From sequence record PQ505080.1: a stretch of 64,000 nucleotides of DNA, one strand, 5' to 3'. A model generated the notes under the pieces. The model saw only the letters and a program-made list of their open reading frames with translations. It had not been told where the DNA came from and made no database searches. Source of the DNA: Escherichia phage HMD-6. Below, one piece after another: positions 5,400-6,556 of this stretch (positions are counted from its first letter, which is position 1; each line of letters opens with the position of its first letter). The translations under genes were made by a program, and so were the position numbers.

Positions 5400-5990
5400 A
5401 CATCAAACATAAGGAGGATTTCTAAAATGGATTTACTCCTTATGATATTTTACCTAGCCGGATATTTTAAAATCCTTAGAAAATCAGAAAATGGATCGAA
5501 AACTAAAATAGATTTTTTCAAGACAGGCACGATAAGCTGTGCTGATCATCCTATCGTTCGCACCGTACTTCAAATCACCGTTCCAGATTTTCCGCACACA
5601 CTCTCACCCATCTACCAGAACTTTCCCAACTTACTTCTTACCTTTTATAGCAATAAGTCAATTATTATCAAGAAGTTTCGGCACATCTCTCTCAGTACTC
5701 GATCTGTTTTTCGTTTCAAAGATTGAATTTTCTGAAAATTTTTCTCGATAAATTTCTCAGTACTCGATCTGTTTTTCGTTTTCTGAATCAGATTTTCTGG
5801 AAATCGTTCCGGCGCTCGACCTGAAATTTTTGGGGACTAAATCGATTTTTCGTTTTCAGAAATGGATTTTTAAAATTTCTATATGGGAATATTTTAGGAG
5901 TTATTATTTTATATAGAATTGTCACGGTAGGTAATTAGCATGCTAACTAAATTTATGAAATGCGAAAAGTTCTCATTTAGAATTTTGAAT
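5400..5990. repeat. AT-rich non-coding repeat region (tandem 26-bp repeat CTCAGTACTCGATCTGTTTTTCGTTT x2, palindrome GGATATTTTAAAATCC, GATTTTT/GAAAATC motifs)
   Basis: Direct reading; ORF 5385-5726 in track is likely spurious. Confidence 0.5.
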
Positions 5991-6006
5991 GATAATCATT
6001 CTCATT
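5987..6006. promoter_or_regulatory. Fur-box-like motif (GAATGATAATCATTCTCATT)
   Basis: About 15/16 match to the Fur consensus core AATGATAATCATTATC; followed by GC-rich hairpin repeat. Confidence 0.3.
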
Positions 6007-6013
6007 TGCAGAA

Positions 6014-6042
6014 TAACGGGCACCCCCGGTGATTGTCTCCCG
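6014..6042. repeat. GC-rich 29-bp repeat, copy A (inverted partner at 14599-14627)
   Basis: ATAACGGGCACCCCCGGTGATTGTCTCCC; exact reverse complement found at 14599-14627. Confidence 0.7.
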
Positions 6043-6120
6043 GCCCCCACTGCCCCGGCTTGTTATTATAGTATCACACAGGACAAAGAAAGCAAGGAGT
6101 TTTTGCATAAATTTTTAGAC

Positions 6121-6142
6121 GATAATGATAATCGTTCTCATT
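6121..6142. promoter_or_regulatory. Fur-box-like motif (GATAATGATAATCGTTCTCATT)
   Basis: 17/19 match to GATAATGATAATCATTATC. Confidence 0.3.
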
Positions 6143-6154
6143 TCATGCAGCGCC

Positions 6155-6190
6155 CATCCCCGGTGGTTGTCTCCCCCGTCACCGGTGCCT
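6155..6190. repeat. GC-rich repeat, copy B (diverged)
   Basis: CCCCGGTGGTTGTCTCCCCCGTCACCGGTGCC resembles copies A and C. Confidence 0.5.
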
Positions 6191-6556
6191 GCCGTCCTTT
6201 CGATACGTATATTGTGCCACCTGGCGGGGCCGCTGTCAACACTTTTCAAAAAATTTTTCTAACCTGGTGCGCTAACCGCTGCAACCTGGCGGGGCCAGCC
6301 TGGCAGGACCTAACTGACCAGGTGGGCCGGGCCTATGCTATAGGATAGGTAACAATTGAAGAGGAGGTACAAAAAATGGAAGGTAATATGATCCCCCCTG
6401 GAAAATGTAGCTATTAATGACGCTGAGGCTATCGCCCTGGTTGAAAAGGCTATGGCGGGAGCGTTGGAACATAGAGAAGAGTACGAAAAATGACGGTTAA
6501 CCTGGCAGGGGCGGCGGCTGGAGAATTCTACCCAAAAAAATAATTTTAACTAGTGG

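Follow-up and report, generated by a model that had tools for sequence, protein, structure and literature searches.

This analysis concerns an island of about 1 kb (positions 5382-6375) in Escherichia phage HMD-6 (sequence record PQ505080.1), of which a stretch of 64,000 nucleotides, hereafter the window, was analyzed. The window belongs to an rV5-like phage (Vequintavirus), and the island sits within a plus-strand block of small early genes: a well-conserved gene for a 109-residue protein ends at 5381 on its left, and a small open reading frame (ORF) starts at 6376 on its right. The genes downstream are headed by early promoters of the canonical type (resembling TTGACA-17-TATAAT and in many cases preceded by an A/T UP element), as at 6557 and 6840. 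The features described below suggest that the island is a conserved non-coding cis-regulatory phage module with genuine operators for the host iron sensor Fur, which would bind there. A sequence-only reading of the same DNA had proposed a non-coding binding-site cluster that is possibly iron-responsive, and this proposal is now supported by the boxes themselves, by a position weight matrix (PWM), by their bacterial context, and by a published Xanthomonas consensus.

Layout and coding status of the island

The left part of the island holds a plus-strand hairpin at 5408-5444 (AUAAGGAGG...CUCCUUAU and then GAUAUUUUA), which folds at -14.7 kcal/mol (z = -3.19, against z = -0.99 for the minus strand) and probably serves the upstream gene as its terminator and marks the left border of the island. 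It is followed at 5460-5475 by an imperfect AT-rich palindrome, GGATATTTTAAAATCC, in which 12 of 16 positions are symmetric; the sequence-only reading had taken it for a perfect 16-bp palindrome and placed it at 5459-5474. After a variable spacer that is C-rich on the plus strand (5499-5695; conservation 0.74-0.83, GC skew down to -0.42) come three iteron-like units, the starts of which lie 65 and 74 bp apart. Units 1 (5685-5749) and 2 (5750-5823) share an exact 27-mer, TCTCAGTACTCGATCTGTTTTTCGTTT, at 5690-5716 and 5755-5781, and the degenerate unit 3 (5824-5890) has a third, degenerate copy at about 5829-5855 (core ACTAAATCGATTTTTCGTTT, 5836-5855) and runs into the most AT-rich stretch (GC 0.30-0.32). 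The GC minimum, 0.30-0.33, is found at 5700-5999. This tandem repeat had been recognized before as a 26-bp unit at 5688-5713 and 5756-5781; the repeat is real, but it is an exact 27-mer, and its first copy had been placed 2-3 nt off. Two modules follow, each made of a Fur box and a GC-rich element, and a variable GC-rich stretch with repeated ACCTGGCGGGGCC motifs (6262-6375), polymorphic in length among relatives, makes up the right edge.

A megablast search with 5300-6450 matches 118 phage records, nearly all of them rV5-like Escherichia phages, at 84-96% identity. Conservation and reading frames were checked in an alignment with 13 relatives. In this alignment, the segment around the hairpin and palindrome (5399-5498) is 93-95% conserved, and 5696-6243 reaches 92-99%, level with the flanking coding genes, whose frames are intact in the 13 relatives. 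The stretches 5499-5695 and 6244-6447, on the other hand, are variable, with indels of 1-2 nt or longer.

GenBank records disagree on what is encoded here, calling from 0 to 7 'hypothetical proteins', and several of them treat the island as ordinary protein-coding DNA (rV5 gp192-194; PHROG 14993). Some observations speak for such genes: ORF 5989-6348 matches PHROG 14993 with E = 2e-63, a strong Shine-Dalgarno sequence precedes the ORF starting at 5427, whose N-terminus is conserved over about 30 residues, and the minus-strand ORF 6108-5977 is unbroken in 12 of the 13 relatives. However, ORF 5989-6348 is shortened to 7, 7, and 43 residues in three of the 13, even though the DNA is about 97% conserved, and its PHROG match is best explained by a family made of spurious annotations. 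ORF 5385/5427-5726 diverges in frame after about 30 codons and measures 7-99 residues in relatives (7 in slur16); the spacer through which it runs differs by substitutions and 1-2 nt indels, the latter breaking the frame, and its Shine-Dalgarno sequence and ATG are buried inside hairpin 5408-5444. ORF 6108-5977 lacks a Shine-Dalgarno sequence and shows about 10 non-synonymous changes against 1 synonymous change. In total, five ORFs on both strands were rejected as proteins from the 13 relatives, the three on the minus strand being either broken or marked by that same ratio of about 10 to 1. The annotations, moreover, contradict one another, and the ORFs overlap Fur boxes and promoters. Nowhere in the island, PHROG 14993 and rV5 gp193/gp194 included, did we find a frame that stays intact in relatives with a purifying pattern.

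The sequence-only reading had seen no convincing gene over about 1 kb, had doubted ORFs 5385-5726 and 5989-6348, and had named transcription as an ordinary mRNA with a conserved ORF in relatives as one result that would overturn its view. On the coding question it was right: neither of the two, nor any other ORF of the island, is conserved as a protein in the 13 relatives. Because the ORFs are broken or neutral and yet 5696-6243 is conserved like the coding flanks, we conclude that the island is non-coding and that its central 550 bp are under selection.

Fur boxes and the module around them

Six sites in the window agree with AATGAKAATNATTMTCATT in at least 16 of its 19 positions, and they form two clusters, one in the island (starting at 5959, 5988, and 6124) and one outside it (16764, 16782, and 16898). 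Four sites reach at least 17/19, against 0 in 40 Markov simulations. Box 0 (AATGCGAAAAGTTCTCATT, 5959-5977; 16/19, 21.0 bits) lies 29 bp from box 1, a spacing seen in 8 other lineages. Box 1 (AATGATAATCATTCTCATT, 5988-6006; 19/19, 30.3 bits) is the core of a segment that recurs in distant phages, as discussed below, and box 2 (AATGATAATCGTTCTCATT, 6124-6142; 18/19, 27.6 bits) has an overlapping site at 6118-6136, through which 6121-6139 agrees with GATAATGATAATCATTATC, the classical E. coli consensus, at 17/19 positions (2 mismatches). The sites are 19-bp 9-1-9 inverted repeats that match the Fur consensus.

A PWM built solely from the boxes of distant phage relatives gives the three island boxes 21-30 bits. 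When this matrix was scanned over a 49-kb segment of E. coli K-12 (595-644 kb; 99.99th percentile 13.7 bits), all six top hits fell in fepA-fes, fepD-entS, and fepB-entC, which are classical Fur-controlled bidirectional promoter regions of E. coli. The earlier suggestion that motifs scoring below background in a matrix scan would speak against Fur boxes can thus be answered: the motifs do not score below background, and the phage matrix also recovers three Fur-controlled ent/fep regions.

The bacterial context points the same way. More than 120 contigs of bacterial genomes contain the exact palindrome AATGAGAATCATTCTCATT. On each side of it, the first downstream ORF was collected (62 ORFs), along with 32 ORFs at control positions on the same contigs; at least 21 of the 62 neighbors are iron-related or fur genes, against 1 of the 32 controls, and they include TonB-dependent receptors (6), FeoB (5), FTR1 (3), Fur-family proteins (3), ZnuA-type proteins (2), and Fe-type substrate-binding proteins (2). 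The same 19-mer is the Fur-box consensus of Xanthomonas campestris, derived from Fur-regulated TonB-dependent receptor genes (PMC1790865). No Fur homologue was found among the proteins encoded in the window, which leaves host Fur as the obvious ligand. Judged by sequence, the boxes are very probably Fur boxes to which host Fur would bind.

With bacterial Fur operators (E. coli fepA-fes, fepB-entC, and iucA; Xanthomonas TonB-dependent receptor genes), the phage sites share the 19-bp 9-1-9 palindrome and its clustering. They differ in that they lie in the non-coding DNA of a strictly virulent phage with no iron-related gene nearby, are discrete sites at a 29-bp period instead of overlapping hexamer arrays, and are found downstream of or between promoters and not over the -35 and -10 hexamers.

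The second cluster (16764-16916), where motif recurrences had been noted at 16762-16800 and 16893-16916, is also real, at 16764-16800 and 16898-16916, and its boxes at 16764, 16782, and 16898 score 16.7, 26.1, and 20.9 bits. It lies within an ORF-free region of about 2.4 kb (approximately 15540-17880) between the plus-strand early block and minus-strand genes, and this region corresponds to the published 'non-coding' block 104013-106618 of rV5 (PMC3606486). Upstream of the cluster, the only promoter candidate is a weak TCGCCA-17-TATTAT. Also in this region, a 15-bp unit is repeated in tandem three times (16277-16329), a 34-nt sequence occurs at both 16069 and 16129, an exact 20-mer is found at 15987 and again at 16246, and CTCTTCAGGCAA is repeated near 17066-17123.

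The two modules of the island, each consisting of a box and a GC-rich element, are direct repeats 134-136 bp apart; identity is 95% between their box parts (5988-6007 and 6124-6143) and 90% between their GC parts (6021-6041 and 6155-6175). Copy 1 of the GC-rich element occupies 6018-6056, with the core GGTGATTGTCTCC at 6028-6040 when read on the plus strand, and copy 2 occupies 6150-6192, with the core GGTGGTTGTCTCC at 6162-6174; the minus strand is assigned to the element from promoter geometry. The core is nearly invariant across lineages, either as CGGTG(A/T)TTGTCTC or as CGGTGTTTTGTACTC, and a 24-nt stretch of the element, noted for the core of copy 1 and for copy 3, is 100% identical to Cronobacter phage CR8. 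The sequence-only reading had described two modules (5987-6042 and 6121-6190) of a box followed by a hairpin. The direct repeats, the boxes, and the GC parts all hold up; the hairpins do not, as their folds are no more stable than those of shuffled sequences of matching composition (module 1, z = +0.35; module 2, z = -1.2 to -1.5). Likewise, RNAalifold on 14 variants of the element, both strands, gives a shared helix of only 3-4 bp with negligible covariation, and Rfam (gathering and E-value thresholds; the window and 7 related loci) returns nothing at the locus. A structured RNA, considered for the element, was dropped on the grounds that RNAalifold finds no covarying helix and single folds resemble those of shuffles. 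The GC-rich parts are best described as an element conserved in sequence, with no demonstrable hairpin.

Copy 3 of the element (14600-14627), outside the island, is in the opposite strand orientation to the island copies and has no Fur box; entered on the minus strand, it stands as RNA on the plus strand, 7 nt after TTGCAA (14543-14548)-16-TATACT (14565-14570). It is part of a regulatory stack at 14536-14680 that begins with a terminator hairpin (14536-14557; z = -3.39) for an upstream small membrane-protein ORF. The loop and 3' arm of this hairpin double as the TTGCAA-16-TATACT promoter, copy 3 comes next, and a canonical early promoter, TTGACA (14649)-17-TAACAT, closes the stack.

With sensitive blastn, about 60-90 nt comprising box 1 and the GC-rich element (about 5956-6043) are found at 82-89% identity in far more distant phages, namely Seunavirus (PVP-SE1, GAP31), Certrevirus (CR8, PcCB7V), Mydovirus (Mydo, KNP2), Henunavirus (an Erwinia phage), Phapecoctavirus (anhysbys), and Shewanella phage 1/4, almost always in unannotated DNA. 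The related loci share an architecture of 2-3 direct repeats (about 65-72 bp), an A/T-rich stretch, a box array, and the GC-rich element. Their arrays contain 1-4 Fur boxes, the starts of which are 29 bp apart in eight lineages, and the repeats of the Seunavirus, Certrevirus, and Mydovirus relatives (2-3 copies) follow the iteron consensus CTCGATC-N3-TTTTC..TTT..CGTATT, the same family as the 27-mer of the window. By comparison of sequences, the module is far older than the genus and recurs across Vequintavirinae, a Phapecoctavirus, and a Shewanella phage.

The box itself is more widespread. The 20-mer AATGAKAATCATTCTCATTT is present in a great variety of IMG/VR contigs, numbering more than 120, often directly downstream of a consensus TTGACA-17-TATAAT promoter; the genes beside the box in these viral contigs include no iron-related cargo and are mostly small ORFs of unknown function. 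In T5-like phages, 282 records (e.g., MF431730.1, 9041-9240) have the identical consensus box followed by GAGAAT and GGGGGCA...GCCCCC. Family and genomic setting differ from those of the island. This non-coding copy is part of the long terminal repeat, close to the inner end of that repeat, and the chee24 record labels it 'left terminal repeat'.

Two further observations concern the relatives. To the right of the GC-rich element, other genera have an extra conserved non-coding segment of about 140 nt with two TTTACAA repeats, CTACCGGCGATCCACCTTCC (which resembles the 3' end of 16S rRNA), and a variable hairpin. The segment ends in a terminator-like GCCCCGCC...GUGGGGUGGC hairpin and a U-run and looks like a small RNA (sRNA) gene, though it has no match in Rfam and no counterpart anywhere in this window. 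Distant relatives also have, right of the module, a small minus-strand (leftward) gene of 61-93 residues, some products of which contain a LGWQGGTVHQVA motif; Vequintavirus, this window included, lacks it.

Leftward promoters and a proposed Fur gate

Two sigma-70 promoter-like sites in the island point leftward, i.e., against the flow of the surrounding early genes. P1 (6065-6095, minus strand) has a -35 of TTGCTT (6095-6090), a 19-nt spacer, and a -10 of TATAAT (6070-6065) that ends 58 bp from box 1; it is weak in this genus and positionally equivalent to strong leftward promoters of other genera. P2 (6211-6260, minus strand) combines a UP-like AGAAAAATTTTTTG (6260-6247), a -35 of TTGACA (6239-6234), a 17-nt spacer, and a -10 of CACAAT (6216-6211) preceded by TG; with 10/12 it is the top promoter match in a scan of 4800-7200, and its -10 ends 68 bp from box 2. 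Within the genus this -10 reads CACAAT, CAAAAT, or CATAAT, so that A2 and T6 are kept.

The arrangement is not particular to this phage. Ten of 11 lineages have a leftward sigma-70 promoter (8.5-10 of 12) to the right of the array, with a -10 that ends 60-68 bp away from the closest box, or 98 bp away in the case of the Shewanella phage. The hexamers vary by lineage (TTGATC/TATTAT, TTGCAA/TATATT, TTGACG/CATAAT, TTGACC/GATACT, TTGACA/CACAAT), but TTG in the -35 and A2/T6 in the -10 are always kept. The distance from the leftward -10 to the GC-rich element is 7-10 nt, which matches the phage's canonical early promoters with GGGGCA...TGCCCC leaders, and copy 3 obeys the same rule on the opposite strand behind its TTGCAA-16-TATACT promoter. 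This geometry suggests that copy 1 may be the 5' leader of a leftward transcript from P1. Most lineages also have a further leftward promoter-like site starting 13-23 bp left of the array.

From these features we infer Fur binding, the direction and extent of a transcript, and a response to iron, and we propose that Fur gates leftward non-coding transcription into the iteron region, a model to which we give about an even chance of being correct. Reading from right to left, one or two early-type promoters would be followed by the conserved leader of about 45 nt and then by the 19-bp Fur boxes, 29 bp apart, at about +55 to +100; beyond the boxes would come the AT-rich stretch, the three repeats of 65-74 bp, and the strong hairpin 5408-5444, closing the unit. 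In an iron-replete cell, Fe-Fur on the boxes would block or modulate leftward transcription. It could act as a roadblock for the upstream promoter, or else cover the region upstream of the additional leftward promoter, which in several genera directly adjoins the array. Under iron scarcity, Fur would leave, and a non-coding transcript of about 650-800 nt would run across the iterons. Its output might be origin activation, a regulatory or antisense RNA, or transcription interference.

Several points weigh against this model. P1 is weak in this genus, with a -35 of 3/6 and a 19-nt spacer, and no terminator-like site was found in the 4800-7200 scan, nor does the proposed leftward end at 5408-5444 fold well when read on the minus strand (z = -0.99). 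For the GC-rich element, neither a significant fold nor covariation was found, so its part as an RNA leader is put forward as a suggestion. Fur classically represses by overlap with the -35 and -10 hexamers, and boxes at +55 are atypical for Fur; roadblock action would therefore be needed. In the T5-like phages, the order of box, GAGAAT, and GGGGGCA is shared, yet no leftward promoter was found there by eye. Finally, promoter-like hexamers in the rightward direction also overlap the boxes (ATGAAA-17-TAGAAT at box 0, 9/12; TTGAAT-18-CAGAAT at box 1, 7.5/12), so the argument for orientation, which is comparative, is not decisive.

This last point opens the way to another explanation, in which the boxes lie in the spacers of classical rightward promoters (-35 TTGAAT/ATGAAA; -10 TAGAAT/CAGAAT) that Fur represses and that fire on iron starvation, yielding short C-rich RNAs from the GC-rich element or colliding with the leftward promoters in a convergent interference switch. 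Besides the hexamer scores, it would account for the textbook position of the Fur operator, for a 29-bp period equal to the length of one promoter (6+17+6), for TTG before the box and TAG after it in most Vequintavirinae arrays, and for the order of elements in T5-like phages. Nevertheless, we hold it to be unlikely. The -10 lacks the essential A2 in Mydo (CTGAAT) and in the Erwinia phage (CGGAAT) and is poor in the Shewanella phage (CCAAAT); it also lies just 3 nt from the GC-rich element, so that the transcript would begin inside the element. The TAG/CTA flanks are symmetric in unrelated contigs, suggesting an extended Fur site rather than a -10, and there is neither a terminator downstream nor an Rfam match. 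As the rightward -10 loses its essential A in two to three lineages and abuts the GC-rich element, leftward transcription is favored on comparative evidence.

The island might instead be a replication origin, with a phage initiator bound to the iterons and the AT-rich stretch, leftward promoters that activate or prime replication, and Fur as an accessory regulator. This explanation overlaps with Fur-gated leftward transcription, since origin firing is one possible output of the latter. As in iteron-type origins, at least three direct repeats lie in AT-rich non-coding DNA and are conserved in relatives, indeed across genera, with inverted repeats inside some units. The iterons occur only once in the 64-kb window, at its lowest GC (5700-5999), the promoters point at them, and a leftward RNA would have a G-rich 5' end. 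In these traits the island resembles the transcription-activated, iteron-bearing origins of other phages (T4 oriE/oriF, lambda ori, the T7 primary origin), where early promoters are likewise aimed at direct repeats in AT-rich non-coding DNA; in contrast to them, it has no DnaA boxes and no recognizable initiator gene adjoining it, the neighbors encoding small proteins of unknown function. We know of no phage origin under Fur control. Where rV5 replication starts is unknown, and the published skew analysis of rV5 finds changes only where the direction of transcription switches and none at the locus of the island (PMC3606486). Furthermore, the 2.4-kb non-coding region at 15.5-17.9 kb, with its repeats and Fur boxes, is at least as good a candidate, and the Shewanella phage has boxes and promoter while iterons were not seen there. 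On balance, we hold an origin to be unlikely. The repeats were also compared, by description, with the pseudo-ToxI of the rV5-like phage phiTE, a type III antitoxin-like repeat RNA. This candidate was rejected: units of 65-74 bp with a conserved core of 27-47 nt are unlike contiguous tandem ToxI repeats of about 36 nt, and the phiTE locus is another intergenic region than the counterpart of the island (PMC3475682).

A third explanation treats the boxes as a decoy: six strong boxes, multiplied by hundreds of genome copies, would titrate Fur and derepress host iron uptake to the benefit of the phage. Multicopy Fur boxes do derepress by Fur titration in the FURTA assay. The boxes are arrayed, in two clusters, in non-coding DNA, and in viral contigs they stand beside small unknown ORFs with no link to iron-related cargo. 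They score 21-30 bits, against 14.6-17.5 bits for bona fide E. coli sites, a gap that is partly circular because the matrix came from phage boxes. However, a single box, as found at the locus in PVP-SE1 and the Erwinia phage, makes a poor sponge, and a pure decoy needs neither the conserved position relative to the promoters nor the conserved 29-bp phasing. We therefore regard a role as a Fur sponge as conceivable but quite improbable.

Still less probable, to the point of being hard to sustain, is that the palindromes are bound by a phage-encoded protein and resemble Fur boxes by coincidence or mimicry. The preference for the symmetric G/C variant GAGAAT/ATTCTC over GATAAT/ATTATC, which is typical of E. 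coli, would fit such a protein, as would the 29-bp array, in contrast to chromosomal Fur sites that overlap at 6-bp steps, and the presence of boxes in many unrelated phage contigs. Yet this 19-mer is found at the promoters of iron-uptake and fur genes throughout Proteobacteria and also outside that group, and it equals an experimentally derived Fur consensus of Xanthomonas, the phage-derived matrix finds E. coli Fur sites, and the window has no Fur-like gene. Since the motif is common to phages of very different families and hosts, a conserved host factor is simpler than a shared phage protein. Ordinary protein-coding DNA, weighed above, is barely credible as an account of the island.

Fur control of phage-borne DNA is known from temperate phages, namely from stx1 of Stx1 prophages and from the sitABCD operon, which is carried by lambdoid coliphages and Fur-regulated (PMC6969025). 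There, too, a host Fur box on phage DNA ties the expression of phage-borne genes to host iron, but it controls cargo or virulence genes from a classical promoter position, whereas the boxes of the island lie in the early region of a lytic phage and control no recognizable protein gene. Fur-repressed sRNAs (RyhB, PrrF, IsrR) offer a different parallel, as strong Fur boxes adjoin promoters that are followed by non-coding sequence. In contrast to these, the island contains no discrete terminator-ended unit of about 100 nt (0 terminator-like sites in 4800-7200, no Rfam match, no consensus structure), and its likely transcript would be leftward and long. A literature search for Fur boxes in regulatory regions of lytic phages or for Vequintavirinae transcriptomes returned nothing relevant beyond the prophage cargo just named, and the rV5 genome paper (PMC3606486) does not mention Fur boxes. 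What is new is thus not the Fur operator as such but its embedding in the core non-coding control region of virulent phages, together with the recurrence of the iteron, box-array, and 45-nt-element module across lineages. The leftward promoters, the conservation of the module throughout the subfamily, and the weakness of the hairpins had escaped the sequence-only reading.

If Fur binds, host iron status would be linked, in rV5-like phages, to the activity of an early transcription unit that is non-coding, and, by extension, the same link could exist in T5-like and many environmental phages. It would also bear on the unsolved start site and manner of replication in these phages. The matter is relevant to phage therapy, where cocktails commonly include rV5-like and T5-like phages and the sites of infection are poor in iron, and to the receptor biology of T5-like phages because FhuA and FepA are themselves Fur-regulated. 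More broadly, large virulent phages in a number of unrelated families (rV5-like, phi92/Phapecoctavirus-like, T5-like, and many that are uncultured) may have acquired consensus operators for host Fur in their own non-coding control regions, independently or horizontally, as a sensor of iron status that gates a developmental decision. Examples would be whether a replication origin fires, or a non-coding RNA switch by which infection is slowed or committed. We offer this tentatively and think it more probably wrong than right; if it were true, Fur would count among the host factors on which the development of lytic phages generally draws.

Neighboring genes and database records

The small gene from 6376 (PHROG 21957; 55-60 residues in relatives) is frameshifted in the window by one extra C: the run at 6393-6398 has 6 C here and 5 C in 13 of 13 relatives, and an A near 6487 is missing here as well. 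Several relatives have other truncations of this gene, which suggests that the gene is decaying or variable, or else that the homopolymer was misread in sequencing.

A 65-residue early ORF upstream of the island is named '30S ribosomal protein S2' in phage VB-EcoM-WM (PQ014731.1) and is hypothetical in all other records, so the name is probably an annotation error. Sixteen MG0656xx records of 'Campylobacter phage' (host C. jejuni) are about 88% identical to this rV5-like coliphage region, and their host labels look doubtful.

Elsewhere in the window, a cluster of 7 tRNA genes occupies 60477-61289, where ARAGORN calls a 4-base anticodon (atcc) at 60946-61044 that scores just 35.5 bits with Rfam, and a group I intron (81 bits) is located at 62809-63087.

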